A stretch of DNA of 64,000 nt from Candidatus Hodarchaeaceae archaeon. Its GTDB lineage: Archaea; Hadarchaeota; Hadarchaeia; Hadarchaeales; Hadarchaeaceae. Below, piece by piece: positions 18,710-35,182 of this stretch. Position 1 is the first letter of the stretch. Every line of letters starts with the position of its first letter. The position numbers and the translations under genes were made by a program. The notes below the pieces were generated by a model. That model was not told where the DNA came from and did not search any database. It saw only the letters and a list, made by a program, of their open reading frames with translations. The DNA lies in assembly GCA_030018135.1 (NCBI GenBank), contig JASEGJ010000003.1, positions 7,633 through 71,632 of the forward strand. Direction: 5' to 3'.

Positions 18710-18741
18710 GTGGTGTCTCCCTGCTCACGCTTGGTGATCGG

Positions 18742-19164
18742 TCACAGAATCTCAACTTTCCCTTCTTTGCTAACCATAATGCCGAAGTCTGTGAGGGCCT
18801 TTCTACGTTTGAGATTCTTCCTTCCAAGCGTTTCCGTTATCAGCCTCGTAAGCTCTGAATAATTACGAGTTATTTTGATCCCCCTCTCATCGGCTTTCCT
18901 GAACACCTGTTCTGAGACGCTGTAAACGTTGGATCCCGCCCTCACATCTATTTTGATCGGCCACTCGATGGTCCCGATTAGCTTTAGAGTATTCCTAGCT
19001 CGTTCCACATTGCGTTCAGCGATTTTTATGATGCGGCTGACATTTGACCTGCTTGTTCCCAGCTCTTCCGCTATCTGCGTCAGACTCTTCCCTTCCCTCC
19101 TCCTTTTGAGCACCTCGAACTGCCTTCTTGTAAGATGGGTTTCCTTTATGTTAACCATTTTCAT
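18742..19164 (-). CDS. tfx: Tfx-family DNA-binding transcriptional regulator
   Basis: 140 aa. N-terminal HTH LTRRQFEVLKRRREGKSLTQIAEELGTSRSNVSRI (LuxR/sigma-70 region 4-like). Confidence 0.75.
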   Translation of the reverse strand: MKMVNIKETHLTRRQFEVLKRRREGKSLTQIAEELGTSRSNVSRIIKIAERNVERARNTLKLIGTIEWPIKIDVRAGSNVYSVSEQVFRKADERGIKITRNYSELTRLITETLGRKNLKRRKALTDFGIMVSKEGKVEIL

Positions 19165-19203
19165 TGCTCATTAGACTTATATTGACTGGTTTGGGTATAA
19201 AAA

Positions 19204-19728
19204 ATGGTGCCTATGAAGCTTGAAACAGCACTCGAGCTGTTCGGGAAAAATCCTTTCGTCCACGCTCTGATAATCGCGACCGTATTTGTCTATCTTATTT
19301 TGTTGATCGCCAAACCCACGGTCGCGAAAAAATCTGCAAAAGATTCGATCAGAACTTTGAAAAGTTTGATGATTCCAATAATTGCCGCCTTATTCATAGC
19401 TGGCGCAATCAAATTCCTCGTTCCCTCCAAAATGCTCGCTGGATTTCTTGGGGAACAGGCGGGGATTGCCGCCGTCTTCATCGGGGTCGCGATCGGAAGT
19501 TTGCTACCAGCTTGCCCTTTCATCTCCTTCCCGATAATCGCGGGTGTTTATGCTGCTGGTGCGAGTCTTGTCGGAGTGATGGCTATGCTTTTCGGGTCTG
19601 GGCTCGCCTTCGCGTGTCGGGTCACTTGCGATCTCATGTTTTTTAACCCAAAGGTTGCCGGAGCCCGGATGACGCTGTCGTTCTTCGTGGCCGTCGTTGC
19701 AGGGCTTCTGGTTTACTTCATCATCTGA
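19204..19728 (+). CDS. Membrane permease subunit (COG0701/DUF318-like half-permease), paralog 1
   Basis: 174 aa with GSLLPACPFISFPII Cys-Pro motif; paralogous to the next gene. Confidence 0.5.
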   Translation: MVPMKLETALELFGKNPFVHALIIATVFVYLILLIAKPTVAKKSAKDSIRTLKSLMIPIIAALFIAGAIKFLVPSKMLAGFLGEQAGIAAVFIGVAIGSLLPACPFISFPIIAGVYAAGASLVGVMAMLFGSGLAFACRVTCDLMFFNPKVAGARMTLSFFVAVVAGLLVYFII

Positions 19729-19737
19729 GGTGAAGCA

Positions 19738-20289
19738 ATGGAGACGAAGGAAAAGATCTACTTGAGCATAGTAATCGCGGCGGTTCTTCTCTACTTGGTG
19801 ACTTGGCTTTTGGACCCCACGCGAGTCAAAAAATGCGTTGCCGCGAGTTTTTCTGAAGTGAAGAAACTGTTCATCCCTATCTTGGCAGCGATCTTCGCCG
19901 GAAGTGTCGCAAAGAACCTTCTGCTGGGAAGCCGTTTCATGAAGATCTTGGGTGGTAAATCCAAGCTGAGGGGGGTAGTTGCGGGGGGGACGCTCGGCAG
20001 TCTGTTGCCGCCATGTCCTTACGCCTCCTATCCGTTGATAAAAGGCGTAAGCGACGGAGGAGCCAACTCCCTGAGCACGATGGCGATGCTCCTCGGCCTC
20101 ACGTCGGTGGCGGTGGGGCGAGTTTTCGCCGGGATCGCGATCTTGGGCCCGGAGATCGAAGGACTCAGAATACTTTTTTCATTTTTGGCAGTGATGCTCG
20201 TCGGCACCCTTTGCTTCTACTTTGACCGCGCCTTGGAGGTTAAGAGAAGGTTGCCGCGTGTTCTGAGCCGCGCGAGCGAACCCAAGTGA
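19738..20289 (+). CDS. Membrane permease subunit (COG0701/DUF318-like half-permease), paralog 2
   Basis: 183 aa with GSLLPPCPYASYPLI; tandem paralog. Confidence 0.5.
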   Translation: METKEKIYLSIVIAAVLLYLVTWLLDPTRVKKCVAASFSEVKKLFIPILAAIFAGSVAKNLLLGSRFMKILGGKSKLRGVVAGGTLGSLLPPCPYASYPLIKGVSDGGANSLSTMAMLLGLTSVAVGRVFAGIAILGPEIEGLRILFSFLAVMLVGTLCFYFDRALEVKRRLPRVLSRASEPK

Positions 20290-20479
20290 TCAAATTCGCT
20301 GCCTTAGCTCTACTGCGTGGGGACACTCGCGGTTTTGTTTTCTGGGAGCTAGCATAGTGGCCATCGCATCGGGACCTTAGAGTACTGACAAATTTCCCCC
20401 AACGCCGCTGCTATCCGAACCAACGAGAGATGAAGGTAATACTTTTATTCAAATAGGTAATATCAATTGAGGCGATGCG

Positions 20480-21754
20480 ATGCTCAATTATATGATCGAG
20501 AGAATGACTAGGAAAAAAATTGGAAATGTCAAATTTTCCAGAACCAAACCAGAAATCCCAAATGATAAGGATGAAATCGGTCTATACATCCACATACCAT
20601 TTTGTAAGGTCCCATGTCCGTTCTGCGCTTACATCCGCTATCCTTGGAACCCAAAGCTCGAGCGACCTTACGTGGAGGCCGTGAAGGAGGAGATAAACCT
20701 CTACCGGGAGAGGCTAAGCGACGTGAAAATAAACTCTATATACGTCGGCGGGGGCACCCCAACCATCATGCCTGAGGGCATTGCCGATATCCTCAGACAT
20801 GCCGAGGACACTTTCGACGTGAGCAGCGACATAGGAGTCGAATCAAACCCCGATGATTTGAATGAAAAAACCCTTGAGCTTCTGCTTGACGCCGGCGTGA
20901 GCAAGCTCAGCATGGGGGTACAGTCCTTCAACGACGAGATCTTAAAAGCGATAGGGAGACGAAGCCACGACGCAAAACAGGCGCTTGACGCAATAGAACT
21001 CGTCATGGACAACGGTGGATTTGACACTTTCAGCATCGATTTGATGTTTTCCCTGCCGACCCAGTCCCTCTCCAGTTTGAAGAGAGATCTCGAGATAGCC
21101 ATCGAAAAGGGCGTGCCGCAGGTCGCAACTTATCCCCTCCTCTTGTTCCCCTACTGCAAGATGTACCGCGATGAGAAAGAGGGAAAGGTGAAGCTGCAGA
21201 ACAAAAAAATCGAAAAGTGCATGTACGACACCATCGTGGATTCCTTCACGGATGCGGGCTATGAACCATGTTCGGTCTGGAGCTTCGTAAAGCAAGGGAT
21301 AGACAAGTACGGATCGGTCGAACGCGATGAGTACGTTGGGATAGGCGCGGGGGCGATGAGTTCTGTGAACCAATACTTTTACGCCAACACCGCTTCGATC
21401 GAGGAATACACCCGGACGGTAGGGGAGGGAGCTCTACCAATAACGATCGGGGCAGAGTTCCAGCCGGAGGGCGTCGCGGCGAGATGGCTGTCTATGTCAC
21501 TTTACGAAACGGGGTTCGACAAGCGCGAGTTCAAAAATCGCTTCAGCATGGGTGTCGACGAGAAATTTAAATCATTCCTGCGCTGGCTCAAACTCTTTGG
21601 GATCATAAAACTCGAAGGAGATCACGTCCAAGTTACAAGGAAAGGTATGTGCCCCATCCATCTGATGACAAAAACATTCTTGCTCACGTTCATAGCCAAA
21701 GCGTGCGTCGCGTGCATGGAAAACCCAAAGCCCCTAAACTTGCAGGTAGGCTAA
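20480..21754 (+). CDS. HemN/HemW-family radical SAM protein (coproporphyrinogen III oxidase-like / heme chaperone)
   Basis: 424 aa. HIPFCKVPCPFCAY CxxxCxxC motif; GGGTP motif. Confidence 0.8.
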   Translation: MLNYMIERMTRKKIGNVKFSRTKPEIPNDKDEIGLYIHIPFCKVPCPFCAYIRYPWNPKLERPYVEAVKEEINLYRERLSDVKINSIYVGGGTPTIMPEGIADILRHAEDTFDVSSDIGVESNPDDLNEKTLELLLDAGVSKLSMGVQSFNDEILKAIGRRSHDAKQALDAIELVMDNGGFDTFSIDLMFSLPTQSLSSLKRDLEIAIEKGVPQVATYPLLLFPYCKMYRDEKEGKVKLQNKKIEKCMYDTIVDSFTDAGYEPCSVWSFVKQGIDKYGSVERDEYVGIGAGAMSSVNQYFYANTASIEEYTRTVGEGALPITIGAEFQPEGVAARWLSMSLYETGFDKREFKNRFSMGVDEKFKSFLRWLKLFGIIKLEGDHVQVTRKGMCPIHLMTKTFLLTFIAKACVACMENPKPLNLQVG

Positions 21755-21834: not shown

Positions 21835-21854
21835 AAATTAGGCATGCCTAATTT
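21835..21854. promoter_or_regulatory. Perfect 20-bp palindrome AAATTAGGCATGCCTAATTT, candidate DtxR/MntR operator
   Basis: Exact self-complement, 15 nt upstream of the feoA TTG start, between a TATA-like ttaaaaa and the RBS aaggag. Confidence 0.5.
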
Positions 21855-21869: not shown

Positions 21870-22103
21870 TTGAGAAAATTACTCGTTGAGCTAAGAGCGG
21901 GCGAGAGTGGCATCATTGCGGGCGTCACAGGCGGGTTTGGGTTGCAACGGCGTTTGGCAACTTTAGGGATAAAAATCAACAAAAAAGTCCGAATGATCAC
22001 TGCTCAACCGTTCAGGGGCCCTGTTGTCGTGGAAGTCGATGGGGCCCGTGTAGCAATCGGCATGGGAATAGCTTGGAAGGTCCTTGTGGAGGTAACAAAG
22101 TGA
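21870..22103 (+). CDS. feoA: Ferrous iron transport protein A
   Basis: 77 aa SH3-like FeoA. TTG start with AAGGAG RBS. Confidence 0.8.
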   Translation: MRKLLVELRAGESGIIAGVTGGFGLQRRLATLGIKINKKVRMITAQPFRGPVVVEVDGARVAIGMGIAWKVLVEVTK

Positions 22104-23806
22104 GAATACTCCTCATGGGAAATCCAAACGTCGGTAAAAGTGTCGTTTTTTCAAGGCTGACAGGTACCAGCGTGGTCGTGTCCAATTACCCCGGTACCAC
22201 AGTTGAGTTCACGAAAGGCACGATGAAGATTGGGGAAAAGAAAGCAGACGTAATCGACGTTCCGGGGACCTATACCTTGGAGCCAACCACAAGGGCAGAA
22301 GAAGTCGCAGTTGAGATGCTTAAAGAAGGCGATGTGGTCATCGATATCGTCGACGCCACAAACTTGGAGAGAAACCTTTACTTAACGCTTCAGCTATTGG
22401 AAAAGAAAGTGCCTGTGATCGTGGCCCTCAACTTGTCGGACGAGGCCAAGCACAAAGGTATAACTATCGATGTCAAGAAACTCGAGAAATTATTAGACGT
22501 CCCAGTCGTTCCCACCGTTGCCATCACTGGAGAGGGGCTCAAAAAACTCGTTTCTCGCCTGCCTGAAGCCAAAGCACATGCTTACAGACACACCGACGAA
22601 CAAAGATGGGAAAAAGTGGGCAAGATCGTTGAAGATGTCCAATCAGTAGCGCATCGACATCATACTTTGGCAGAAAGGCTAGGGGATGCAACCGTTAGGC
22701 CCTTAACTGGGATCCCAATTGCCATTGGAATAGTTACACTAATGTTCCTTGTGATACGATTCATCGGCGAGGGATTGATTGCCAATGTGTTTGATCCAGC
22801 GTTTGGGGCCTATGAACCCGTAGCGATGAGGATGAGCGAAGCATTAGGTTCTGGCGGCCTCCTCCATAATATCGTAATCGGAAACCTGATCGATGGCGGG
22901 ATAGACTTTACGCAGTCCATGGGCCTATTGACTACCGGGATTTTTGTCCCGTTCGCAATGGTTCTACCTTACGTGTTTGCGTTTTACTTGGTGCTGGGAT
23001 TTCTCGAGGATAGCGGCTACTTACCAAGGCTAGGTGTACTTGTCGATAGTGGAATGCACAGGGTAGGGATGCACGGCCTTGCGGTAGTGCCGATGTTGCT
23101 TGGCTTAGGGTGCAATGTCCCGGGAGCTCTTTCTTCCAGAATTCTCGAAACTCAAAGGCAAAGGTTCATTGCCCTCACGCTCATGGGGATAGCAGTCCCA
23201 TGCATGGCCCAGCTCGCCATAATCTTCGGGTTGGTAGGTCCCTATGGCATCGGAGCTCTGGCGATGGTCTTTGCAACACTTTTTGTGGTATGGGTGGTGA
23301 TTGGGCTCTTGCTCAACAAGGTTTTGGCGGGCGAAAGTCCGGAGATGTTCACAGAAATTCCGCCTTACCGCATGCCGTATTGGGGGGCAACATTGAAAAA
23401 GCTGTGGATGAGGATAAGGCACTTTTTGACCACGGCGATCCCCTTCGTGCTGCTGGGCGTACTTCTTGTGAATGTATTGTATACTTTGGGGATAATCGAC
23501 TTCATGGGTGATATCGCATCCCCAGTTGTTGTTGGGTTGCTTGGGTTACCGCCGGCTGCGGCCGGAGCATTGATAATAGGATTTCTGCGCAAAGATGTGG
23601 CTGTAGGGATGTTGCTGCCCCTCGGCCTGAGCATGCAACAGCTGGTAGTGGCCAGCGTGGTACTGGCGATGTACTTCCCCTGTGTCGCAACCTTCGCCAT
23701 CCTCTTCAAAGAGTTCGGGATAAAAGGCACGATAAAATCTACTTCAATTATGATCGGAATGGCGTTGCTAGTGGGGACTTTACTTAGACTTGTACTCGGT
23801 GTGTGA
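22100..23806 (+). CDS. feoB: Ferrous iron transport protein B (GTPase plus permease)
   Basis: G1 motif [11 protein letters not shown] start overlapping the feoA stop (GTGA), with GGAGGT RBS. Long polytopic C-terminal half. Confidence 0.9.
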
Positions 23807-23807
23807 G

Positions 23808-24236
23808 ATGCCATCGGTAAGTATCGACGAATATCTGGAAGTCCTGTGGACTCTACGGGTCGATAGAAATCAGCCCGGAAAGATAAGGGATGTCGCAAAG
23901 TTATTAAAAATCGCGCCGCCAAGTGTGTTCCAAATGTTCGAAAAAATGAGAATGCAGGGGCTGATTAAATATGACAAGCGCTCTGGGGCAGATTTCACAC
24001 GAAAGGGAAAGAGGAGGGCCAGACATATTGTGAGAAGTCACAAGCTTGTGGAAAAACTCCTCGTTGACATCGTGGGCGTTAAACTCGGTGAGGTGGAACG
24101 TCCCGCTTGCGGCGCCGAGCATTATCTGCCAGAAGAAGTGGCTGATGCGATATGTATTTATTTGAAACATCCGCGCGAGTGTCCACACGGAGATCCGATT
24201 CCGAAGGGAAAATGTTGTCCTCAGAGGAAAGTTTGA
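23808..24236 (+). CDS. DtxR/MntR-family metal-dependent transcriptional repressor
   Basis: HTH region SIDEYLEVLW..IRDVAKLLKIAPPSVFQMFEKM. ATG one nt after the feoB stop, in frame with the ORF-track 23790 start. Confidence 0.75.
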   Translation: MPSVSIDEYLEVLWTLRVDRNQPGKIRDVAKLLKIAPPSVFQMFEKMRMQGLIKYDKRSGADFTRKGKRRARHIVRSHKLVEKLLVDIVGVKLGEVERPACGAEHYLPEEVADAICIYLKHPRECPHGDPIPKGKCCPQRKV

Positions 24237-24350
24237 GGGCGCCGATATAGGACCATTGCACAAAAACCTATATTGGCACGAGTAATTCTCTTCTATGGGG
24301 TTAGCTTGTACCAATGGCGTCGCGGTCGGCGAGGGGGACCTGGAAGGCCG

Positions 24351-24653
24351 ATGAAACCCAGGTTCTTGAGCTTCAGGCCCGAAGCGATAACGTTTATGCC
24401 ATCCGCTCCAATAGGGCCACCAATCGCGGGCGAGCCGATCTACATGACTTATGACGAGTACGAGGCCTTTCGCCTGATTTATCACGAAGGGCTGAACCAG
24501 GAGGAGGCCGCCAAGCGGATGAAAATTTCGCGTGGGACGGTGTGGCGCTGCTTAGAGAGCGCGAGGAATAAGGTTGCCTGCATGCTCGTCGAACGCCGCC
24601 CGCTCGTGGTCACGTCTGCACCTCCTCGACCTCCAGAGGAGACAGGCACTTGA
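24351..24653 (+). CDS. DUF134 (UPF0251) family putative DNA-binding protein
   Basis: MKPRFLSFRPEAITFMP N-terminus and sigma-70 region-4-like HTH LNQEEAAKRMKISRGTVWRCLESARNKVA. GGAAGG RBS upstream. The ORF-track TTG start at 24273 was rejected. Confidence 0.65.
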   Translation: MKPRFLSFRPEAITFMPSAPIGPPIAGEPIYMTYDEYEAFRLIYHEGLNQEEAAKRMKISRGTVWRCLESARNKVACMLVERRPLVVTSAPPRPPEETGT

Positions 24654-25489
24654 GCCAAGTCGATAGAATACGGCTCACGGTTTTGGTTGACGATTCCAAG
24701 AACCCGATCAGACCCGAACTCACAGCCAAGCACGGGTTGTCCTTCTTCATCGAATTGAAAGCTGGCAGACACACAACTAGTCTGTTGCTGGATACCGGGC
24801 CGTCCGCCGATGTTGTCCTACAAAACGCTCGGAAGCTCGACATCGATTTGAGGAAGGTGGATTCTATTTTCCTGAGCCACGGACATTACGACCATACCGG
24901 TGGGCTCTTGGGCGTCCTAAAACACATCGGCAAAAAGGTACCTGTGATAGCCCACCCAGAGGCGCTTGAGCCAAAATTTGCGAGGAGGAAGAAGCGTCTC
25001 AAAAAGGCCGGCATCCCTTTTCAAGTTTCAGAGTTGCAGAGATCGAGCGGCATCTTAACTCTAAAACGGGGGTCGACTTCCGTAGCGCCCGGAGTTTGGG
25101 TGAGCGGGGAAATCAAAAGAGTCAGCCCATTTGAAGAGGTAAAGGGGTTCAAGGTTATGAGGCGGGGCAAACTCGTAGAGGATTACATGCCGGATGATCA
25201 GGCTCTTTTCGTGAGGGTCAAGGGCAGGGGGCTGGTGGTCATCACGGGTTGCGCTCACGCGGGGTTGATAAACACGATCAAGCAGGCGCAAAAGGTAACG
25301 GGTTCGAGCGGCGTGTATGCGGTCGTTGGTGGGTTTCACCTAGCTGGAGCAAGTGCGGGAAGGATAAATGCAACCATTGAGGAGCTCCAGAAAGCTGGCG
25401 TGAAAGCTGTCATGCCATGTCACTGCACGGGAAAGAAGGCAATCACAAAGTTCTCGAAGGTCTTTGGAAAAAAAGTGCAACCAGCTTAG
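24650..25489 (+). CDS. Metallo-beta-lactamase fold hydrolase
   Basis: HxHxDH motif (LSHGHYDHTGG). Overlaps the DUF134 stop by 4 nt. Confidence 0.7.
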   Translation: MSQVDRIRLTVLVDDSKNPIRPELTAKHGLSFFIELKAGRHTTSLLLDTGPSADVVLQNARKLDIDLRKVDSIFLSHGHYDHTGGLLGVLKHIGKKVPVIAHPEALEPKFARRKKRLKKAGIPFQVSELQRSSGILTLKRGSTSVAPGVWVSGEIKRVSPFEEVKGFKVMRRGKLVEDYMPDDQALFVRVKGRGLVVITGCAHAGLINTIKQAQKVTGSSGVYAVVGGFHLAGASAGRINATIEELQKAGVKAVMPCHCTGKKAITKFSKVFGKKVQPA

Positions 25490-25518
25490 AACAGGTAATG
25501 TAATCATTCTAAGCACCA

Positions 25519-25532
25519 AAAAGCTTTTATAG
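25519..25532 (+). promoter_or_regulatory. Candidate BRE/TATA (aaaagcTTTTATAG) for the downstream operon
   Basis: AT-rich 88-bp gap; TATA-like element ~45 nt upstream of the ATG at 25578. Confidence 0.3.
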
Positions 25533-25577
25533 AATTATGTGCAATAGCACAAATAGTACAAATAGAGGTGGTAACGA

Positions 25578-25841
25578 ATGTGGTGGCCGGGTTTCGGCTG
25601 GGGTCGAGGCTGGTTTGGACCTTGGCCAGGCAGAGGGCCTTTTAGCTATCTGCCCCCATGGCAGAGACCCGGGTGGTGGTTTGGTCGAGGAGCGTGCTGG
25701 TGGCTCTTCGGACCTTGGGCGTGGTCGATGTTCGGATACCCATGGAGTGGATACCTAGGAACCTACGGGTTTGCTCCGTACGCGATGCCACAGTACCCCT
25801 ACCAAAGATACGTACCATACCCTTATCCGGGATACTGGTAA
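25578..25841 (+). CDS. Trp/Gly/Pro/Tyr-rich small protein (87 aa, 14 Trp)
   Basis: Starts MWWPGFGWGRGWF; SD GAGGTGG 7 nt upstream. A paralogous MWWP start opens the next gene. Confidence 0.5.
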   Translation: MWWPGFGWGRGWFGPWPGRGPFSYLPPWQRPGWWFGRGACWWLFGPWAWSMFGYPWSGYLGTYGFAPYAMPQYPYQRYVPYPYPGYW

Positions 25842-25864
25842 ACAAACAAAAGGAGGTCAAAAGT

Positions 25865-26182
25865 ATGTGGTGGCCTAGAGGTTGGAGATGTTGGTGGTGG
25901 TATATGAATCCATACATGTACCCACCCTACCTACCATACGTGCAAGCGCCGCAGCAACCCTCGCAACCTGCGCCGCAACCCACGCAGCCCGCAACAGTAC
26001 CTTACTACCCGCTCCCACCGTTCATGCCTCCTCCACCGACGCCCGAGCAAGAGATCGAAGCGCTGGAGGCATACAAAAGCGAGCTCGAAGAGGAACTCAA
26101 GGGCATCGAGGCGAGGATAAAAGAGTTGAGGGAGTCCCTAGGCAAAGGATCCAGCGGTCAACCATCTGAAACCGGAAAGTGA
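25865..26182 (+). CDS. DUF5320-like small protein: Trp/Tyr/Pro-rich N-terminus plus C-terminal coiled coil
   Basis: ATG at 25865 with AAAGGAGGT SD, internal to the ORF-track 174-aa frame. MWWPRGWRCWWWYMNPYMYPPY..., then EQEIEALEAYKSELEEELKGIEARIKELRESLGK. Confidence 0.55.
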   Translation: MWWPRGWRCWWWYMNPYMYPPYLPYVQAPQQPSQPAPQPTQPATVPYYPLPPFMPPPPTPEQEIEALEAYKSELEEELKGIEARIKELRESLGKGSSGQPSETGK

Positions 26183-26186
26183 TAAA

Positions 26187-26552
26187 TTGGGGCTTAAAGT
26201 GGCAGTTGCCACGAAGGGGCTCAAAAGCCTAGAGGATGAAGTATCAGATGTCTTCGGCAGAGCTCGAGCCTTTGCAATAGTCGAGACCGAGGGAGGTCAG
26301 ATCAAGAACGCAAAAGCTGTGGAGAATCCCGCAGCTTCATACGAGTACGGAGCTGGACCGATAGTCACAAAAATGCTCGCCGACATGGGAGTCGAGGTCG
26401 TGATCGCTGGCGAGTTCGGTATGGGGGTGTCAGTTCTCCTCAAGGATAAGAATATCCGTGCAGTCAAAGTTAGAGCTGGAACAAATGTCTGCCGGGCCGT
26501 GGATAGTGAATTAAGTGAGAAACAAACTTCGGAGCGATTGTCATGCGGGTAG
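26187..26552 (+). CDS. NifX/NafY/NifB-C-like protein (dinitrogenase FeMo-cofactor-binding domain, PF02579-like), single domain
   Basis: KVAVATKG...FGRARAFAIVETEGG...MGVEVVIAGEFG fits the Nitro_FeMo-Co fold pattern. Confidence 0.7.
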   Translation: MGLKVAVATKGLKSLEDEVSDVFGRARAFAIVETEGGQIKNAKAVENPAASYEYGAGPIVTKMLADMGVEVVIAGEFGMGVSVLLKDKNIRAVKVRAGTNVCRAVDSELSEKQTSERLSCG

Positions 26553-27421
26553 CCATCCCATCAAATAAGCCTGGCGGACTGGATGCTGCGGTCTCCCCCC
26601 ATTTTGGTCGTTGTGATGTATTCACGATAGTTAAAATTGAAAATGGCAAGGTAGTGGATGTAAGCGTTGTTGAAAATCGAGGGACACATTTCGGCTTTGG
26701 AGCAACACCTGCGGAAATCTTGGTTTCGAACGGCGTAGATGCGGTATTAGCTCAGGGTATGGGACCTAAGGCCCTGCAGCTCTTGGCACAAAGCGGTATC
26801 ACAACGTACATGGCCTCGGCTCAAACGGTTGGAGAGGCTGTGCGCGAGCTGGTCGAGGATAAGGTCAGGCTGGCTACAATCGAGGAAGCGTGCAAAGAAG
26901 CAAGAGAACCTTGGTTGCCTCCGGCCCCTATCATGCCCGGTGTGGGGATGGGGATGGGCCGTGGAATGGGAAGGGGGGGGAGAATGATGGGTCCCTCTCC
27001 TTATGGTCCCGCTTACCCACCGATGATCCCCCCAACGCCGTATCCTCCACAAATGCCGAAACCTTCTCCCCCACCAACAGGCCGCTTTAAAGTGGGCGTC
27101 GCAAGCCAGGGGCCAGGGGGACTCGACGACATGGTATCGCCGATCTTTGGCAGGTGCCCGAGCTTTACCATCGTCGAGATCGAAGGGAGAGAAATTAAAA
27201 ATGTAAAGGTGATACCGAATCAATTCGTTTCTACGCCTCGCGGTGTGGGAATCGCTGTGGTCCAGATGCTAGCAAGCGAAGGGGTGAAATTTATTTTGGC
27301 CGGACGATTTGGCCCTTGGGCATCCTCAACTTCTAGTCAATTCGATATCCAAATGGTCATGGTCCCGCCCGGCGTGAGGATTAGGGACGCTATCAACCAA
27401 TACATCATCGGCTCACGCTAG
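26543..27421 (+). CDS. Tandem two-domain NifX-like protein joined by a Pro/Gly/Met-rich low-complexity linker
   Basis: Domain 1 MRVAIPS..HFGRCDVFTIVKIENGKV..; linker PGVGMGMGRGMGRGGRMMGPSPYGPAYPPMIPPTPYPPQMPKPSPPP; domain 2 FKVGVASQG..IFGRCPSFTIVEIEGREI... Confidence 0.7.
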   Translation: MRVAIPSNKPGGLDAAVSPHFGRCDVFTIVKIENGKVVDVSVVENRGTHFGFGATPAEILVSNGVDAVLAQGMGPKALQLLAQSGITTYMASAQTVGEAVRELVEDKVRLATIEEACKEAREPWLPPAPIMPGVGMGMGRGMGRGGRMMGPSPYGPAYPPMIPPTPYPPQMPKPSPPPTGRFKVGVASQGPGGLDDMVSPIFGRCPSFTIVEIEGREIKNVKVIPNQFVSTPRGVGIAVVQMLASEGVKFILAGRFGPWASSTSSQFDIQMVMVPPGVRIRDAINQYIIGSR

Positions 27422-27422
27422 G

Positions 27423-28328
27423 GTGCAGCGATTGAAGGAAATTGTGATCGCTAGTGGAAAGGGTGGAGTCGGTAAGACTACGGTCGCTGCATCGCTTGCA
27501 GTTTTTTTGGCCAAAGCCGGGACGAAAATCGTTGCAGCTGATGCAGATGTTGATGCACCGGATCTCTTGTTGGCGCTGGGTGGCGGAAAGACAATTTCCT
27601 CAACCGAGATCGAAGCTTCAGAAAAAGCGGTGGTCGACGGGTCGAAATGCACTGGATGTGGTAATTGCGTCAGCGCTTGCCCGTTCGGCGCGATTGTGGT
27701 GCAGAATCGTCGACCAACCGTTGTGCGGCTCATGTGTGAGGGTTGCGGCGTGTGCGAGGTTGTCTGCCCCGTCAACGCAGTTGAGGTGAAAAAGGCGGTG
27801 ACGGGCACCCTGAAAATCGAGGATACTAAGTACGGATTCCCGTTGGTGACTGGGTACCTGAGGCTGGGCGAACACAATTCGGGGCACCTCGTAGCGAGCG
27901 TAAAAAAATCCGGGCGGAAGACGGCTGAGGATTTGGGGGCAAGGGCGCTCGTGGTCGACGCAGCGCCGGGTATAGGTTGCCCAGTGATCGCTTCGATCTC
28001 GGGAGCCAGCTATGTTATTGCTGTTACCGAGCCGACGCCTGCCGCCAAGCGGGACCTAGAACGCTTGGTCAAAATCATAAAACACTTCGGGGTCTCGGCG
28101 GGAGTGGTGATAAACAAGGCGAACCTCTCGGACGACTTCAGGGATGCGCTTGAGGACTGGGTAAAGCATGTGCTAGGTTATCAAATTTTAGGCGAGATCC
28201 CCATCGACTACGAAGTTGTTAAAGCTCTGGTGAACATGGTGCCGGTCACTGAGTTTAATCCAAACGCTGAAGCATCGAAGATCTTGACTGCGATAGCCAA
28301 ACGCGTGCGAGATGAGGTTTTACTATGA
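27423..28328 (+). CDS. MinD/ParA-superfamily P-loop ATPase with inserted 2x[4Fe-4S] ferredoxin domain (COG1149-type)
   Basis: Walker A SGKGGVGKTT; CTGCGNCVSACPFGAI and CEGCGVCEVVCPVNAV inserts. GTG start 1 nt after the previous stop. Confidence 0.8.
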   Translation: MQRLKEIVIASGKGGVGKTTVAASLAVFLAKAGTKIVAADADVDAPDLLLALGGGKTISSTEIEASEKAVVDGSKCTGCGNCVSACPFGAIVVQNRRPTVVRLMCEGCGVCEVVCPVNAVEVKKAVTGTLKIEDTKYGFPLVTGYLRLGEHNSGHLVASVKKSGRKTAEDLGARALVVDAAPGIGCPVIASISGASYVIAVTEPTPAAKRDLERLVKIIKHFGVSAGVVINKANLSDDFRDALEDWVKHVLGYQILGEIPIDYEVVKALVNMVPVTEFNPNAEASKILTAIAKRVRDEVLL

Positions 28329-29278
28329 AACCCGGCGGGGAGGTGTCAGCGAAAGTGCTCAGGAAAAAGAGCGTGAGCGTGCCCATGATAGCAGTCACCG
28401 GCGGAAAGGGCGGCACGGGCAAAACCACGGTTGCGGTGAATTTGGCCGTGGGGTTGAGTTTGAAAGGCTCTAAGGTCATGCTGGTCGATGCCGACGTTGA
28501 CTGCCCCTGTTGCGCGATGTTGCTCGGAACCGAACTGAATGCTAGCGAGGAAGTCAGAGTATTTAAGCCAGTGATCGATGCGGCGAAGTGCACTGGATGT
28601 GGAAGGTGTGTGGAAGTCTGTCGGGAACATGCATTGGTAGGGCTTGAGGGGCAAGTCCCATCACTTTTCGAAGAACTTTGCTCCGGGTGTAAAGCGTGTC
28701 AGCTCGTTTGCGAAGCCGGCGCCATGAAGAGCGGTCAGAAAGTTCTCGGTACCATCTACGTCGCAGATTCAAATGGGATTAAACTGGTGGTGGGCGAACT
28801 CAAACCGACCGAGCCGAGGTCGCCGATCGTGGCGCGCGCGACCATGCTCAAAGCCGCTGAGGAGCTTAAGCTTGACAAACACGATATCGTAATCGTGGAC
28901 ACCGCTCCGGGGATTCATAACGTGGTGGCTCAAGCCCTTTGGGAAGCCGACCTAGCGCTGGCTGTGACTGAGCCGACCCCACTCGGAGCTCACGATCTGG
29001 GATTCATGTTAGACCTCACCGAGGAACTGGGGTTGCCGACCGAGGTCATCCTGAACAAGGCCGACATCCCAAGCGGTTTGAAGGATAAGGTGGTGAAGAC
29101 GAGCCGTGATCGGGGAGTTAAAATCGTTGCGGAGATACCGATGGACGAAGAGCTGTTGCGCTCCTACGTTTCGGGTGAGCCGCTCGTGAGAAAATCACCC
29201 AAGAGCCCAGCTGCAGCTGCAATGTTAACTCTGGTTCCGCACATTCGTGAAATGTTTGTAAAGGGAGGTGAAACCTGA
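28325..29278 (+). CDS. Second MinD-type ATPase with ferredoxin insert (paralog of the previous gene)
   Basis: TGGKGGTGKTT; CTGCGRCVEVCREHAL plus a second Cys cluster. Overlaps the previous gene by 4 nt. Confidence 0.8.
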   Translation: MKPGGEVSAKVLRKKSVSVPMIAVTGGKGGTGKTTVAVNLAVGLSLKGSKVMLVDADVDCPCCAMLLGTELNASEEVRVFKPVIDAAKCTGCGRCVEVCREHALVGLEGQVPSLFEELCSGCKACQLVCEAGAMKSGQKVLGTIYVADSNGIKLVVGELKPTEPRSPIVARATMLKAAEELKLDKHDIVIVDTAPGIHNVVAQALWEADLALAVTEPTPLGAHDLGFMLDLTEELGLPTEVILNKADIPSGLKDKVVKTSRDRGVKIVAEIPMDEELLRSYVSGEPLVRKSPKSPAAAAMLTLVPHIREMFVKGGET

Positions 29279-29487
29279 TGGCGCAACCACCCACCCCACC
29301 ACCGCTGCCAACTAAAAAGTTTCAATGTTTTGCCTGCGGGAACATCATAGAGGTGCCTCAGGGGATACCCAAGCCACCAGCGTGCTCTAGGTGCGGCGCT
29401 CCGGCGGTAATGATTCATCGTGTTGACAAGGGGCCGCCGGGTGGAAGACGCGGCGCTGCGGGCCCACCTTGGGCTCAGCAAGGCTGA
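29278..29487 (+). CDS. Small zinc-ribbon protein (CxxC...CxxC), Pro-rich termini
   Basis: 69 aa. CFACG...CSRCG. Start overlaps the upstream stop (ATGA) with AGGGAGGTG SD. Confidence 0.45.
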   Translation: MAQPPTPPPLPTKKFQCFACGNIIEVPQGIPKPPACSRCGAPAVMIHRVDKGPPGGRRGAAGPPWAQQG

Positions 29488-29572: not shown

Positions 29573-30421
29573 GTGAGGATCTATTTAGATTGCATCCCGT
29601 GCTTCGTGAGGCAGGCTTTGGAAGCGAGCAAGATGGCTACGAGGAACAAAAACAAACAAGAAAAAGTCTTGAAGAAAGTTTTATCTGAGATTGGGAAAAC
29701 TTCGTTAAAAAACAAGATACCATCTGATATTGCTCATAAAGTTCACCGCATAATCAGAAAAATGACAGGGAATAACGATCCTTACAAGAAATTGAAAGAC
29801 CAGTGCAACAGAAAAGCGCTGAGGATGTACCCGGACCTTAAACAAAAGGTCGCTGGGTCTAAAGATAGATTGCTGACGGCGACAAAACTCGCCATAGCTG
29901 GAAACATTATCGATTTTGGGCCCGGTTCTGAGTTCAATCTGGAGAAAACAATAGAGGAAGTTCTAGTTCAGGATTTCGCTATAAATCATTTTAATCGGCT
30001 TAGGGAAGCGTTGCAAAAATCTGAAAAGATTGTATATTTAGGAGACAATGCAGGTGAGATAGTTTTCGATCGGATTCTCTTGGAAGAATTGAAGGATAAA
30101 GAGATCACATTTGTGGTCAAAGGAGGGCCCATCATAAATGATGCAACGGTCGAAGATGCAAAATTCGCTGGCATAGACAAAATTGCTGAGATTAAAACAA
30201 TAAGCAATGGGGAGCCTGGCACGGGGCCGAAGAGAAATTCAAAGGAATTTACAAATTTCTTAAAAAGCGCCGATGTCGTGATTAGCAAAGGGCAGGGAAA
30301 CTATGAAGCCTTAAGCGAAGTGAACGCGAACATATTCTTCTTGCTCAAGGTGAAGTGCCCAACGATTGCTGGGGATATCGGAGTTAAAATTGGTGGTATC
30401 GTCGTAAAACAATCGTGTTAG
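29573..30421 (+). CDS. DUF89 family protein (ARMT1-like damage-control phosphatase / methyltransferase)
   Basis: N-terminal CIPCFVRQ and C-terminal ISKGQGNYE motifs. GTG start. Gene is markedly AT-rich. Confidence 0.65.
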   Translation: MRIYLDCIPCFVRQALEASKMATRNKNKQEKVLKKVLSEIGKTSLKNKIPSDIAHKVHRIIRKMTGNNDPYKKLKDQCNRKALRMYPDLKQKVAGSKDRLLTATKLAIAGNIIDFGPGSEFNLEKTIEEVLVQDFAINHFNRLREALQKSEKIVYLGDNAGEIVFDRILLEELKDKEITFVVKGGPIINDATVEDAKFAGIDKIAEIKTISNGEPGTGPKRNSKEFTNFLKSADVVISKGQGNYEALSEVNANIFFLLKVKCPTIAGDIGVKIGGIVVKQSC

Positions 30422-30728
30422 TTGGTTGAGGCGATCCCAAGATGTCGGAGACCAAGCTCGTGAGCGCCTGCCTTTTTGGGGTCAACTGTAGTACGACGGT
30501 CAAAACAACTTTAACGAGAAAGACAAATGCTTGAAGGTCAGGCGGCAGCGCTCCGGCAGCAATTGGATCAATCAAGAAGAGGCTTGAAGAGCTCAGCAAA
30601 ATGTAGGGCCCAATCGTCTTATCAATGAGTCCGACAACAGGGGTGAAAAAGTGCTACGATAAGTGTGTAGCCTCATCTTGAATCAGCTGGATACACATTT
30701 ATTTTGTGCAATCGCCAGAAAAAAATGA

Positions 30729-31586
30729 ATGGTGGGGCAAGTAGAAGAAAGGATGAAAGAAATACAGGAACAGGAAAGGCGCCTCAAAATACGGATGGCC
30801 AAAATCAAGTATAAACTGGCGATACTGAGTGGAAAGGGCGGGGTCGGCAAGAGTACCATCACCGCTAATTTAGCCATTGCTTTTGCACGCAAGGGTCACA
30901 AGGTGGGTGTTTTGGATGTTGATATTCACGGCCCGAGTATTCCCAAAATACTCGGCATGAGGGGGCAGGAGTTGACTGCAGGGCGGCTTGAAGGTGTGGG
31001 CATCTTTCCGGCCAAAGGTCCGCTCGACATCAAAGTCATCTCCATGGATTTCCTCCTCCCAGATGACGAAACCCCGGTTATTTGGCGCGGTCCGATGAAG
31101 ATGGGTGCGATCAGGCAATTTTTGGCGGATGTGGCGTGGGGTGACTTGGATTTTCTGTTTATTGATGTCCCGCCAGGAACTGGGGACGAGCCGCTCAGCT
31201 TGATGCAATTGTTGCCAGACATCACGGGTGTCATCGTAGTAACTGCACCATCCGAGGTTTCTCAGATCGTCGTCAAGAGAGCAGTAGGATTTACAAGGGA
31301 GCTGCACGTGCCGGTGGTTGGCATCGTAGAGAACATGAGTGGGTTCGTTTGTCCAAAATGTGGTGCAGAATTCGACATTTTAGGAACTAGTGGTGGGCAA
31401 AAAATATCAGAGCAACTTGGCATCCCATTTTTGGGCAAGATTCCAATCGATCAAAAGATATGTGAGGATTCAGACAGGGGAACGCCTTTCGTCATCGAGC
31501 GTGCTGAAACTCCGGCGGCTAAGGCCTTCATGCGAGTGGTTGATAAAGTGGAGGGGTATTTAAAACAACTGGGAGTGCGGGCTTGA
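30729..31586 (+). CDS. apbC: Mrp/NBP35/ApbC-family Fe-S cluster carrier ATPase
   Basis: ILSGKGGVGKST; CPKCG CxxC near C-terminus; WGDLDFLFIDVPPGTGDE. Confidence 0.85.
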   Translation: MVGQVEERMKEIQEQERRLKIRMAKIKYKLAILSGKGGVGKSTITANLAIAFARKGHKVGVLDVDIHGPSIPKILGMRGQELTAGRLEGVGIFPAKGPLDIKVISMDFLLPDDETPVIWRGPMKMGAIRQFLADVAWGDLDFLFIDVPPGTGDEPLSLMQLLPDITGVIVVTAPSEVSQIVVKRAVGFTRELHVPVVGIVENMSGFVCPKCGAEFDILGTSGGQKISEQLGIPFLGKIPIDQKICEDSDRGTPFVIERAETPAAKAFMRVVDKVEGYLKQLGVRA

Positions 31587-32341
31587 TCGTCGACGAGTTA
31601 TTGGGTCTGGTCGGGGAGCGGAGAAGCCAGCTAGAAGACCTGACGCTCTCGAGGGTATGCGTGAGCCTCTGCTATACCGCGGTGATGCTCGATAACGGCT
31701 ACGTTGGGCTCTGCCACACGCCTACCGAGGACATTGCACACACTCATTGGGGCCGCAGGCGGGACTTCCACGGCTTCAAGGCCTTGGAAATCACGCGCCT
31801 GGCGAATTCGCTTGACATGATTGAGAGGACCGTTGGCATAGCGGCATTGAACGCCCTCTCACAGTACCTGATGGACTCTGAAGGTTATGAGCGGCAGTTT
31901 GGAATGGACGCCTTTAATGCGATAGATGTAAAGGAGGAAGACAGCGCCGCGGTGGTTGGGTACATGAGGCCCCTAGTCGGGAAGCTGAGGGCAAAGGCCC
32001 GCGAAGTCCACGTTTTCGAACGCAACCCCCAATTGAGGGGGGATGCCCTGCCTGATACTTTTGTCGACTCGATATTGCCGAAAGCGGATATCGTGGTTAT
32101 AAGCGGGTCGAGTTTAGTCAATGGAACCCTTGATAGGTTGCTGGAGCTATCCAAAAGAACTAGATTCGTGATTTTTGCAGGGCCAACGGCCAGCACTTTA
32201 CCAGAGCCTCTTTTCAAGCGGGGTGTAAGCGTCGTGGCGGGCGTTCGCGCGAAAGGTCCTAAGGTGATGGGTGCAGTAGCCGAGGCCAAACCATTCGTGG
32301 CATTCAAACAGCTTGTGGAGAAGTATATTTTAAGGAGATGA
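31583..32341 (+). CDS. DUF4213/DUF364 protein (putative metal-chelating Rossmann-like domain)
   Basis: N-terminal VGLCHTPTED; C-terminal DIVVISGSSLVNGTLDRLLEL. Overlaps the apbC stop. Confidence 0.6.
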   Translation: MIVDELLGLVGERRSQLEDLTLSRVCVSLCYTAVMLDNGYVGLCHTPTEDIAHTHWGRRRDFHGFKALEITRLANSLDMIERTVGIAALNALSQYLMDSEGYERQFGMDAFNAIDVKEEDSAAVVGYMRPLVGKLRAKAREVHVFERNPQLRGDALPDTFVDSILPKADIVVISGSSLVNGTLDRLLELSKRTRFVIFAGPTASTLPEPLFKRGVSVVAGVRAKGPKVMGAVAEAKPFVAFKQLVEKYILRR

Positions 32342-33808: not shown

Positions 33809-34387
33809 ATGGTAAATTGTGTATCTTGCGTGGAAAAAGCGTGTTCAAGAGGGAACCCATGCCCAGTCGGCGAACCTTTGAAAAAATTTGCATTCAAATT
33901 CAAGGAATACCGCAAAGCGGGCAACTTGAAGCTCTATCAAAAATCCAGCTCGCTAGAAGTCGAAGGGTACATGAGATACCCCCGGGTGAAAGAACCCATC
34001 CGGCTGGCAGAGGGGATGGGCTGGAATAAACTGGGGATGGCCTTTTGCATAGGTCTTTCGGAGGAGGCGAAGAAGCTGCAGGAGGTACTGAAGTGCACGG
34101 TTTTGAAGTTCATTCGGTTGTGTGTAAAGTTGGTGGCGTTGAGAAGGAAAAATTCTCTTCCCGAAAGGAAAAGATCACGCATGCAATCCAATTCTCCAAG
34201 CGATGGTCCTCAACGAGGTTGGAACGGATTTGAACGTCATCGTGGGTCTTTGCATCGGCCACGACACCTGTTCCAGCGGTATTCGAAGGCTCCGACGACG
34301 ACGCTCATAGTCAAGGATCGAGTACTGGCTCACAATCCGGTCGGGGCCCTCTACTCGAGATACCACTTCAAAAAGTTGTTGCGGTAG
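33809..34387 (+). pseudogene. DUF1847-like Cys-rich protein gene apparently disrupted by three single-nucleotide frameshifts
   Basis: Cys-rich N-terminus MVNCVSCVEKACSRGNPC.. in frame A. Protein-like continuation [18 protein letters not shown] in frame B (about 34093-34180). [29 protein letters not shown] in frame C (about 34182-34265). Return to frame A for [29 protein letters not shown]. Frame A is junk-like between 34100 and 34265. Confidence 0.5.
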
Positions 34388-34393
34388 GAGAGG

Positions 34394-35182
34394 TTGAGCG
34401 ATAATTTCAGAGAGGTAATCTACGGCCCGGTTTTCTCTTGGCGGCTTGGCAGATCTCTGGGAGTAGACCCGATTTGCGCCGAGGGGAAAATCTGTTCATT
34501 CGATTGTGTGTATTGCTCTCTCGGTCGGACCGCGATGAAAACCGTCGACCGCAGAACCTTTGTCCCGGCGAAAACTGTGGAGCGAGCCCTTGGAGAAGCG
34601 CTGAAAAGTGTCAAGGCGGATGTCATAACTTTTTCTGGAACGGGTGAGCCGACACTCGCCAAAAACTTGGGTGAACTCATAGAGGTCGCTAAAGAATCCT
34701 CCGATCTCCCGGTCGCGGTTTTAACGAATTCCTCCCTCCAATTCAGGAAGGATGCGAGAAAAGAACTCGCAAAGGCGGACATCGTGAAAGGCAAACTGGA
34801 TGCTCAAAACGATGAACTTCTCAAACGGATAAATCGTCCGCACGAGAAAATTTCGTTCTCTGAAATCATAGCGGGTTTGAAAAAATTCCGAAAGGAGTTC
34901 ACCGGAAGGTTCGCGATAGAGGTGATGTTCGTCCCGGAAAACAAGGATTTTTCGGGCGAGATCGCGGAAATTGTGGAAACAATAGAGCCGGATGAGGTCC
35001 AGATTAACACCCCTCTCAGACCGAGTCCCGCAACACCGCTTACCCGAGAGGAGTTGGAGAAAGTCGAGAAAAGCTTTCGGGGTTTGAATTGCAGGTCCGT
35101 TTACAAAGCTAGAATCCCGGCAAGACGCTACCTAAAAGTCTTGGGAGCGGAAAAAATAAGACGGCTCAAACGAGTCGATTGA
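34394..35182 (+). CDS. Radical SAM protein (small, PflA/QueE-like core)
   Basis: CSFDCVYC CxxxCxxC motif; 262 aa. Confidence 0.7.
   Translation: MSDNFREVIYGPVFSWRLGRSLGVDPICAEGKICSFDCVYCSLGRTAMKTVDRRTFVPAKTVERALGEALKSVKADVITFSGTGEPTLAKNLGELIEVAKESSDLPVAVLTNSSLQFRKDARKELAKADIVKGKLDAQNDELLKRINRPHEKISFSEIIAGLKKFRKEFTGRFAIEVMFVPENKDFSGEIAEIVETIEPDEVQINTPLRPSPATPLTREELEKVEKSFRGLNCRSVYKARIPARRYLKVLGAEKIRRLKRVD

Follow-up and report, generated by a model that had tools for sequence, protein, structure and literature searches.

A probable archaeal counterpart of the orange protein complex gene cluster, with NifX-like domains and a pair of ferredoxin-inserted ATPases

Introduction

The orange protein (ORP) complex is known from Desulfovibrio species, and a related run of nine genes is described here from archaeal DNA. 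The genes occupy positions 24351 to 29487 of a 64-kb stretch of contig JASEGJ010000003.1 (assembly GCA_030018135.1, contig positions 7633 to 71632, forward strand), and this whole stretch is called the window. The Desulfovibrio vulgaris proteins Orp3 and Orp4 are ATPases and paralogues of each other, and both contain two [4Fe-4S] ferredoxin motifs. The orange protein itself is Orp8. It consists of a Nitro_FeMo-Co domain and in Desulfovibrio gigas carries a Mo-Cu-S cluster. Orp9 (MrpORP) joins an Mrp/NBP35 domain to a Nitro_FeMo-Co domain in one protein, and Orp5 is a small Cys-rich protein. The genes are arranged as orp3-orp4-orp5 and orp7-orp8-orp9 (DVU2103-DVU2109) in two sigma-54 operons under the redox-sensing activator OrpR. 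Orp4 and Orp8 are recovered together with Orp3 on purification, and in vitro this complex accepts Fe-S clusters from MrpORP. The system has been called anaerobe-specific and possibly of archaeal origin, and the Archaeoglobus fulgidus homologues AF2378-AF2380 have been noted in the literature.

A second related system is IssA, the thioferrate Fe-S storage protein of Pyrococcus furiosus. Its tail is Pro-rich and then cationic, aromatic and Gly-rich, with Trp, Gly and Arg as the key residues, and its authors proposed that the tail wraps anionic thioferrate. They placed MTH1175 in the IssA clade, in which iron and sulfur are stored as thioferrate with the help of the Trp/Gly/Arg-rich cationic tail. 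In Methanococcus voltae grown on pyrite the IssA-like proteins Mvol_0689 and Mvol_0693 and the CbiA-type Fe-S proteins Mvol_0691 and Mvol_0692 increased 2.3-5.0 fold. FeoAB and DtxR also increased and a thioferrate-like electron paramagnetic resonance signal appeared.

The storage and delivery of Fe-S material in anaerobes are poorly understood. Few gene sets of strict anaerobes are as widely conserved as the ORP-type cluster and yet lack a defined biochemical function.

Identity of the gene cluster

All nine genes lie on the plus strand. They encode, in order, a DUF134 protein, an MBL-fold hydrolase, two Trp-rich small proteins (W1 and W2), two proteins with Nitro_FeMo-Co domains (NifX1 and NifX2), two ferredoxin-inserted ATPases (ATP1 and ATP2) and a zinc-ribbon mini-protein. 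The DUF134 and MBL genes overlap by 4 nt and are followed by an AT-rich gap of 88 nt before W1. Gaps of 23 nt (W1-W2) and 4 nt (W2-NifX1), an overlap of 10 nt (NifX1/NifX2), a gap of 1 nt (NifX2-ATP1) and overlaps of 4 nt (ATP1/ATP2) and 1 nt (ATP2/zinc ribbon) complete the layout. An initial annotation had read these nine open reading frames (ORFs), with this strand and spacing, from the window alone, and the ORF calls confirmed it. Profile hidden Markov models (HMMs) support its DUF134, MBL, NifX-like (PF02579) and ferredoxin-ATPase assignments.

The initial annotation regarded the ensemble as lacking any assigned function. As to its kind the cluster is no orphan, as it matches the known ORP cluster, but its biochemical job is still unsettled in the ORP literature. 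The window operon is very probably the archaeal counterpart of the ORP complex gene cluster.

The comparison with ORP was made through the D. gigas orange protein (PDB 2WFB) and the locus of Desulfovibrio sp. X2 (L004). This locus and that of a metagenome contig (L005) were both fetched via ORP homologues found with the D. gigas ORP sequence. The X2 locus contains two PAS-sigma54 activator genes, two Gly/Arg-rich small ORFs, ORP, two ATPase genes and a NifX-like gene, in that order. The order in L005 is ORP, ATPase, ATPase, NifX, Zn_ribbon_8. The NCBIfam model MrpORP matches both the NifX domains and the two ATPases of the window.

ATP1 (27423-28328) is a deviant-Walker-A ATPase with an inserted 2x[4Fe-4S] ferredoxin domain. 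ATP2 (28325-29278) is its ferredoxin-inserted paralogue. Both have CbiA/ParA and Fer4 matches. They represent types 1 and 2 of an Orp3/Orp4-type pair. In BLASTP comparisons ATP1 matched the second ATPase of the X2 and L005 loci at 182-189 bits and the first at 127-130 bits. ATP2 matched the first at 134-140 bits (32-33% identity) and the second at 112-116 bits. By these best hits the two window ATPases correspond one to one to those that adjoin ORP in Desulfovibrio sp. X2 and L005.

Conservation of the cluster

Close relatives of the cluster were found in Hadesarchaea (L001), Bathyarchaeota (L003) and a 90%-related genome (L086). These keep nearly the whole set, comprising FeoA/FeoB/DtxR, DUF134, MBL, W1, W2, two NifX-like genes, two ATPases and an Mrp-DUF364 pair. 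A wider census drew 80 loci from a one-genome-per-species scan with the ATPase alignment, a limited and non-random sample. The loci came from Bathyarchaeia, Thorarchaeota, Thermoplasmatota, methanogens, Aminicenantes, Dehalococcoidia, Clostridia, Bacteroidales, Desulfobacterota, Campylobacterota, Spirochaetes, PVC phyla and others. They were scored with HMMs built from loci fetched earlier in the analysis, and genes on the same strand within 5 kb were counted as neighbours. The ferredoxin-inserted ATPase was present in 77 of the 80 loci, and the counts below refer to these 77.

Neighbourhood conservation, which the initial annotation had named as a check on its reading, was borne out in diverse anaerobic bacteria and archaea, with a NifX-like gene beside the ATPase in 71 loci. 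An adjacent ATPase pair was present in at least 55. DUF5320 genes occurred in 33 loci, DUF134 in 32 and Mrp/MinD-type genes in 28. MBL, DUF89 and zinc-ribbon genes were each found in 15; four more zinc ribbons among unassigned ORFs give a range of 15-19 for the last. Less frequent neighbours were NifU_N (11 loci), radical SAM (7), TrmO (7) and Fur-like genes (3). CGGC-domain genes also recurred.

This list of partners bears on a cell-division or positioning role. The MinD-like pair would then be a redox-sensitive spatial regulator, as has been proposed for Desulfovibrio ORP, and the NifX-like proteins would be cofactor-bearing sensors. No cell-division genes recurred among the neighbours in the 77 loci, where the recurrent partners were related to Fe-S clusters or metals (Mrp, NifU_N, Fur/DtxR, FeoB and radical SAM). 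The window ATPases scored 83 and 75 bits with the archaeal MinD model TIGR01969, against a cut-off of 201.75. The phenotype in D. vulgaris Hildenborough (DvH) may be indirect according to its authors. A positioning system is therefore considered quite unlikely.

The ATPase pair

Both ATPases have the deviant Walker A SIMIBI fold and each carries two CxxCxxCxxxC ferredoxin motifs. ATP1 and ATP2 are anciently duplicated paralogues with ferredoxin inserts, and the set is kept across anaerobic bacteria and archaea. Among 57 adjacent ATPase pairs 45 had one member of each type. The order was type 2-type 1 in 41 of them and type 1-type 2, as in the window, in 4. A search of 1.84 billion representative proteins gave 575 matches to ATP1 at 1e-30 or better. 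Many of the best were about 600 amino acids (aa) long and matched the query twice, which identifies them as natural fusions of the two paralogues. In these fusions (P0375-P0404 and others) the ATP1-type half is C-terminal, the same as the dominant gene order. The fusions support the pairing of the two ATPases only.

A Cys residue 7 positions after the Walker B Asp (D..PG..C) was present in 133 of 140 family members and in both ATPase types. In ATP1 this is Cys186 (about 27978-27980). ATP2 has Asn at this position, whereas 52 of 56 type-2 members have the Cys. The spacing is the same as that between Asp125 and Cys132 of NifH. At the dimer interface the switch-II Cys may bind a metal or a cluster under the control of the nucleotide.

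The resemblance to NifH raises the question of an ATP-driven low-potential reductase, in which the pair would act on a catalytic partner in the manner of NifH, BchL or CfbC and the NifX-like proteins would be accessory. NifH, BchL and CfbC hold an inter-subunit [4Fe-4S] cluster with two Cys ligands from each subunit. The window offers one candidate Cys in ATP1 (Cys186) and none in ATP2, which lacks the switch-II Cys. The NCBIfam nifH model TIGR01287 gave 38 bits (cut-off 394.35), and the CfbC model gave 28.8 bits against a cut-off of 402. No NifDK, BchNB or CfbD-like partner (PF00148) was encoded in the window or recurred in the loci. On this evidence a reductase is very unlikely.

NifX-like proteins

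NifX1 (26187-26552) has a single Nitro_FeMo-Co domain (PF02579, 2.1e-15) of the Cys-free 'FGRA' type, which is MTH1175/ORP-like. NifX2 (26543-27421) is a tandem protein with two such domains (PF02579 twice, 1.9e-38). Its N domain belongs to the 'HFGRC' type and in this resembles the C-terminal domain of MrpORP, and its C domain belongs to the 'FGRC' type. The two are joined by a cationic linker rich in Gly, Arg, Met and Pro, with the sequence GMGMGRGMGRGGRMMG followed by a Pro-rich stretch (pI 10.2). The two domains are separate genes in the Bathyarchaeota locus, which indicates that the tandem is a fusion.

Three motif classes of NifX-like domain were distinguished across the loci, and the window holds one domain of each. 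Cys-free FGRA domains (46) were mostly upstream of the ATPases and HFGHC/HFGRC domains (49) mostly downstream; 30 domains were of the FGRC class. The best solved match for NifX1 (1.9e-12) and for both halves of NifX2 was MTH1175 (PDB 1EO1). The D. gigas ORP matched NifX2 at 1.7e-8 and 6e-9, with 6e-9 for the C domain, and NifX1 at 0.008. The N domain of NifX2 was 41% identical (BLASTP, 4e-28) to the Cys/His-type NifX gene located 3' of the ATPases in bacterial ORP loci. Identity of the window NifX domains to bacterial ORP was only 27-32%, too low to single out a strict orthologue.

A fourth NifX-like gene lies at 35490-35802 on the plus strand, as the initial annotation had recorded, and it is frameshifted. 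Its N half and C half (35602-35802) are in different frames and the NifX HMM matches the C half. It is either a pseudogene or an error in the metagenome-assembled genome.

The Pfam name of these domains refers to nitrogenase, and the genes might have been ordinary nitrogenase accessories (NifX/NafY/NifB-C plus a NifH-like protein) split from a nif cluster elsewhere in the genome. ATP1 also passes the gathering score of PF00142 (39 bits against 25). The initial annotation had reported no nifHDK or nifB in the window, and the Pfam scan and a search for the NifH signature upheld this. Every window ORF of at least 300 aa was compared with Pfam; none was a nitrogenase component and PF00148 was not matched. 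The NifH signature DPKADS was absent from all 8128 ORFs of the window and 85 related loci, and no nifHDK or nifENB association was found in either. The score for TIGR01290 nifB was 15.4 bits against a cut-off of 343.65, and no match to a NifX or NafY model was listed. The cluster also occurs in many lineages that are not known to fix nitrogen. The nif-accessory explanation was rejected and is essentially excluded, since the window has no nif genes and the related loci no NifH signature.

The metal carried by these domains allows another explanation, which is the handling of Mo- or W-sulfide (thiometalate). The NifX-like proteins would carry Mo/W-(Cu)-S for storage, detoxification or the supply of Mo/W enzymes, as in D. 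gigas ORP. As isolated, ORP binds [S2MoS2CuS2MoS2]3-, and the domain family binds FeMo-co and its precursors. A tungsten-type aldehyde:ferredoxin oxidoreductase (AOR) is among the proteins encoded by the window, and for AF2378-2380 a role connected with the Mo cofactor was suggested by the A. fulgidus authors. However, no Mo/W transporter or molybdopterin biosynthesis genes recurred beside the cluster in the 77 loci. Iron and sulfur are what the recurrent partners and the proteomic response have to do with, and the C-terminal domain of MrpORP binds an Fe-S cluster and not Mo. A thiometalate role is thus unlikely.

Trp-rich proteins, probably of the DUF5320 family

W1 (25578-25841) is a cationic small protein of 87 aa, rich in Trp (14), Gly (16), Pro (15) and Tyr (11), with 5 Arg, no acidic residue and a pI of 9.6. 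Its motif PWPGRGPFSYLPPWQRPGW is conserved in the Hadesarchaea and Bathyarchaeota loci. W2 (25865-26182) has a Trp-rich N-terminus, a Pro-rich middle and a C-terminal coiled coil, and it has homologues at the same position in both of these loci. The initial annotation described two Trp-rich small proteins and named PF17253/DUF5320 among the profiles to search. Both proteins are present. W2 matches PF17253 (DUF5320) over its C-terminal part at 24.7 bits (5.4e-5), just below the gathering cut-off of 27. W1 has no Pfam match of its own. It has 285 homologues, of which every named one is archaeal; many carry PF17253 and some are named DUF5320 proteins. Since PF17253 is found in many homologues of W1, and W2 matches the family over its C-terminal coiled coil, both are probably DUF5320-family proteins. 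W1 would be an archaeal member of the N-terminal motif type. Small proteins encoded beside bacterial clusters match PF17253 at 2.4e-28 (representative) and are rich in Gly and Arg and not in Trp. W1 and the NifX2 linker share the composition described for the IssA tail.

Regulation and iron uptake

The DUF134/UPF0251 protein (24351-24653) has a helix-turn-helix (HTH) resembling sigma-70 region 4 (Sigma70_r4, 1.1e-6) and is a candidate regulator. It matches PF02001 at 2.5e-16 (60.5 bits, gathering score 27). With the NCBIfam model PRK04217 it scores 91.5, under the cut-off of 115. Sequence searches of the PDB gave no informative structure for DUF134, and literature searches on DUF134, DUF5320 and COG1149 yielded no relevant paper. 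Two apparent literature matches to DUF134 were discarded as prefix matches to DUF1345 and DUF1349.

The 88-nt gap before W1 contains a promoter-like region on the plus strand (25523-25551), with the TATA-like sequence GCTTTTATAGAA followed by the 14-bp palindrome TGTGCAATAGCACA (25538-25551). This is the sole TGTG-N6-CACA palindrome in the window. The same element occurs just 5' of the W1 homologue in the Hadesarchaea locus, in the Bathyarchaeota locus (two copies) and in a Thermoprotei locus (L023), and is thus found in four archaeal lineages including that of the window. A full palindrome is also located 19 nt 5' of the DUF134 gene in L003.

Half-sites were found 5' of two further genes. The half-site TGTGCAAT lies 5' of the DUF134 gene on the minus strand (24255-24262), as it does in L001 (4928). 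A second copy follows the TATA-like ATTTATTT 5' of the Mrp gene on the plus strand (30705-30712), and the same arrangement is seen in L001 at 11055. TGTGCAAT also occurs 150 nt inside the DUF364 gene (31733-31740), at a position conserved in L001. Element positions in the other loci are 4928, 6015, 11055 and 12084 (L001), 4673, 6293 and 6337 (L003) and 6808 (L023). In the bacterial loci no TGTG-N6-CACA element was seen 5' of cluster genes. Over 1.07 Mb of loci the motif was not enriched (12 found, about 16 expected), so the operator claim rests on position and on conservation in the archaeal loci. TGTG-N6-CACA, which directly follows TATA-like boxes in several archaeal lineages, is a candidate operator of an unstudied regulon. 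The half-sites 5' of the DUF134 and Mrp genes suggest that the unit probably extends over about 24.25-32.34 kb and includes Mrp-DUF364.

Iron-uptake genes adjoin the cluster on its 5' side. FeoA (21870-22103, plus strand) was assigned from its translation, which matches the FeoA part of DtxR-FeoA seeds; PF04023 is found at the equivalent place in L086. It is followed on the same strand by the ferrous iron transporter FeoB (22073-23806), which also lies directly 5' of the cluster in L001, L003 and L086, and by a DtxR/MntR-family metal-dependent repressor (23790-24236). The repressor matches the NCBIfam DtxR (6.3e-21) and MntR (7.5e-21) models, both under their equivalog cut-offs. FeoAB/DtxR genes adjoin the cluster in the window and in all three close relatives. 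The DtxR-type palindrome TTAGGCATGCCTAA (TTAGG-N4-CCTAA) lies 5' of feoA (21838-21851), and L001 has TTAGGTATACCTAA (about 2350) 5' of its DtxR-FeoA gene. From the known shape of DtxR boxes, TTAGGCATGCCTAA is a putative DtxR box. This separate palindrome suggests two distinct regulators for the neighbouring units. One would be DtxR, acting on the feo unit; the other is most plausibly the DUF134 HTH protein, which would control its own gene, the W1-to-zinc-ribbon operon and the Mrp-DUF364 operon.

In L086 the region 3' of the cluster (13328-20367) contains a Zip transporter, DUF89, a YjeF_N/2-thiouracil desulfurase-like gene, a pyridine nucleotide-disulfide oxidoreductase, a second DtxR-FeoA/FeoB set and FeS_assembly_P. 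Together with the cluster these genes form a larger metal/sulfur island.

Other genes of the window and its host

The TM1679-type MBL-fold metallo-hydrolase (24650-25489) matches PF00753 at 2.7e-13 and TM1679 (PDB 3H3E) at 6.8e-34. In Desulfovibrio sp. X2 an MBL-rhodanese fusion protein is encoded after the ORP cluster (L004, 11106-12491), a hint that MBL genes near the clusters act on sulfur (persulfide) compounds.

The zinc-ribbon mini-protein (29278-29487) has 69 aa with a CxxC...CxxC pattern. The initial annotation's zinc-ribbon call has a weak Pfam match (Zn_ribbon_8, 22 bits), and it gains support from a gene at the same position in L086 (11892-12122) that is 80% identical over 51 aa and is recorded there as PF27353 'MJ0401'. 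No BLASTP similarity was found between the mini-protein and the Zn_ribbon_8 protein of L005. Orp5/Dde_3197 is known here by its description ([2Fe-2S]).

Downstream on the plus strand are three further genes. The first encodes a DUF89/ARMT1-like protein (29573-30421; PF01937, 6.8e-73), a probable accessory member that is also found near the cluster in L086. The second encodes an Mrp/NBP35/ApbC-type Fe-S cluster carrier ATPase with a CxxC motif (CPKC) (30729-31586; PF10609, 2.8e-96). It overlaps by 4 nt the gene of a DUF4213-DUF364 'putative heavy-metal chelation' protein (31583-32341), and the same Mrp-DUF364 pair occurs in L001. A DUF1847 gene and a radical SAM gene (33809-35182) lie downstream of Mrp-DUF364-thioredoxin.

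Just 5' of feoAB (17927-21754) are a second DUF364 gene, a TFX-family HTH gene (sigma-70 region-4-like, as is DUF134), two half-size ArsP_1 permease genes and a radical SAM gene. In two Clostridia loci, L064 and L065, a similar pair of half-permeases adjoins the ATPase cluster. The permease pair may be a further accessory transporter.

The wider context given in the initial annotation was also found, with Mrp, two DUF364 genes, SufBC (56887-58802) and five radical SAM genes in the window. No tRNA genes were found in the 64 kb. Repeat scans of 21.7-32 kb gave paralogue-derived similarity and short chance matches only. The window also encodes an A-type ATP synthase, the tungsten-type AOR, 2-oxoacid:ferredoxin oxidoreductases and an ADP-forming acyl-CoA synthetase, and these genes point to an anaerobic archaeon as the host. 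ATP1 is 100% identical to MDI6819615.1, labelled Candidatus Hodarchaeaceae archaeon, a family that NCBI places in the Asgard group. The nearest named homologues are from Hadesarchaea (ATP1 71%, W1 88%), while proteins labelled Hodarchaeota are only 47% identical. The Hodarchaeaceae label is doubtful and may reflect a mix-up of Hod- and Had-.

Proposed function

The reading preferred here is that the cluster is an ATP-dependent storage and hand-over module for Fe-S (or metal-sulfide) clusters, to which we give a probability of about 0.5. The NifX-like domains would hold inorganic Fe-S (or metal-sulfide) clusters and the Fe-S ATPase pair would move them. ATP1 and ATP2 would pair as an ATP-gated heterodimer, with the downstream Mrp protein as its source of clusters. 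This heterodimer would use ATP, and possibly low-potential electrons, to assemble, hold or release Fe-S material on NifX1 and NifX2. The part played by the IssA tail would fall to the Trp-rich DUF5320 proteins and the cationic NifX2 linker, which would neutralise anionic Fe-S species and wrap around them. The DUF134 HTH protein would bind TGTG-N6-CACA and co-regulate its own gene, the W1-to-zinc-ribbon operon and the Mrp-DUF364 operon, and the adjacent DtxR/FeoAB unit would supply and sense Fe(II). The initial annotation had proposed a nitrogenase-independent metallocluster module. The independence from nitrogenase stands for the window and the loci, and the carrier or hand-over role is an even call.

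Several points weigh against the storage and hand-over reading. The ORP papers call the role of the complex 'still unclear' and favour a link to cell division, and D. gigas ORP as isolated carries a Mo-Cu-S cluster and not Fe-S. Mvol_0691 and Mvol_0692 are read as COG1149 (ATP1/ATP2) homologues from annotation and locus numbers only. W1, W2 and the NifX2 linker resemble the IssA tail in composition; the tail is known here from its description, and homology is not implied. The 8-mer TGTGCAAT is not over-represented in the window (4 found, 1.9 expected), and 9 of 100 shuffled sequences reach 4. Few of the 77 loci have FeoB or DtxR near the cluster, which makes the iron-uptake link specific to some lineages, and these loci are themselves the limited, non-random sample noted above.

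A more specific version is speculative and rather improbable. The ORP-type cluster would be an ATP-driven store of iron-sulfide mineral. The three NifX-like domains would nucleate anionic Fe-S polymers, and the free-standing DUF5320 proteins would wrap these as IssA-like tails in trans. The Orp3/Orp4-type heterodimer would load or mobilise the store with ATP and ferredoxin-level electrons, and the DUF134 protein, as a regulator of archaea and bacteria not characterised before, would act on TGTG-N6-CACA. If this version were true, ORP and IssA, which have been studied separately, would be one widespread anaerobe-specific pathway of Fe-S storage and delivery. Storage and hand-over of Fe-S clusters would, if true, explain why so many proteins of organisms without nitrogen fixation are annotated as 'dinitrogenase iron-molybdenum cofactor'.

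Comparison with known systems

The window cluster shares most of its parts with the ORP complex. Both have single-domain Nitro_FeMo-Co proteins, and the window domains match PDB 2WFB. Both have two paralogous MinD-like ATPases beside a NifX-like gene, each ATPase with two [4Fe-4S] motifs. They also have in common an Mrp/NBP35 carrier and a NifX domain of the Cys/His type, as at the C-terminus of MrpORP, and both are restricted to anaerobes. The zinc-ribbon mini-protein after ATP2 may be the counterpart of the small Cys-rich Orp5. The cluster differs from ORP in that the MrpORP fusion is absent. Mrp is a stand-alone protein (30729-31586) and the HFGRC-type domain is the N half of NifX2. A DUF134 HTH protein, an archaeal TATA element and TGTG-N6-CACA take the place of sigma-54 and OrpR, and no sigma-54 activator gene was found among the scanned window ORFs. 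The window operon is headed by two Trp-rich proteins, probably of the DUF5320 family, two NifX domains are fused in tandem, and the ATPase order is that of the minority (4 of 57 pairs). MBL, DUF89, DUF364 and FeoAB/DtxR genes are attached.

IssA and the window proteins have the IPR003731/PF02579 globular domain in common, and the best solved relative of the window domains is MTH1175. The window too encodes low-complexity sequence that is Pro-rich and then cationic and Trp/Gly/Arg-rich, and both systems are linked to iron supply. In IssA the C-terminal tail is on the same polypeptide. In the window NifX1 has no tail, the NifX2 segment is an internal linker and W1 and W2 are separate genes. As far as IssA has been described it has no dedicated ATPase pair.

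NifX, NafY and NifB-C have the same Pfam domain as the window proteins and the non-covalent carriage of complex metal-sulfur clusters in common with them. The window differs in lacking a nifHDKENB context and in its nifB score, which is far under the cut-off, and its domains probably fall with MTH1175/ORP and not with the nif clades.

Compared with MinD and the SIMIBI deviant-Walker-A ATPases that handle metalloclusters (NifH, Mrp/NBP35/ApbC, CooC and HypB-associated Mrp), the window ATPases are set apart by a full 2x[4Fe-4S] ferredoxin domain inserted behind switch I, and such an insert is present in no solved structure. The window type is an obligate paralogous pair and is often fused.

The window presents no new kind of system; it is a compact archaeal example of the ORP-type cluster. 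The DUF134 protein in place of OrpR, the Trp-rich DUF5320 proteins, the tandem NifX, the split Mrp and the adjacent feo/DtxR genes are lineage-specific features. Three NifX subtypes, both ATPase paralogues, DUF5320, Mrp, a candidate regulator with its candidate operator and iron-uptake genes lie within about 10 kb. The census joins ORP, IssA-like proteins, DUF134, DUF5320, DUF89 and Mrp into one recurrent neighbourhood.

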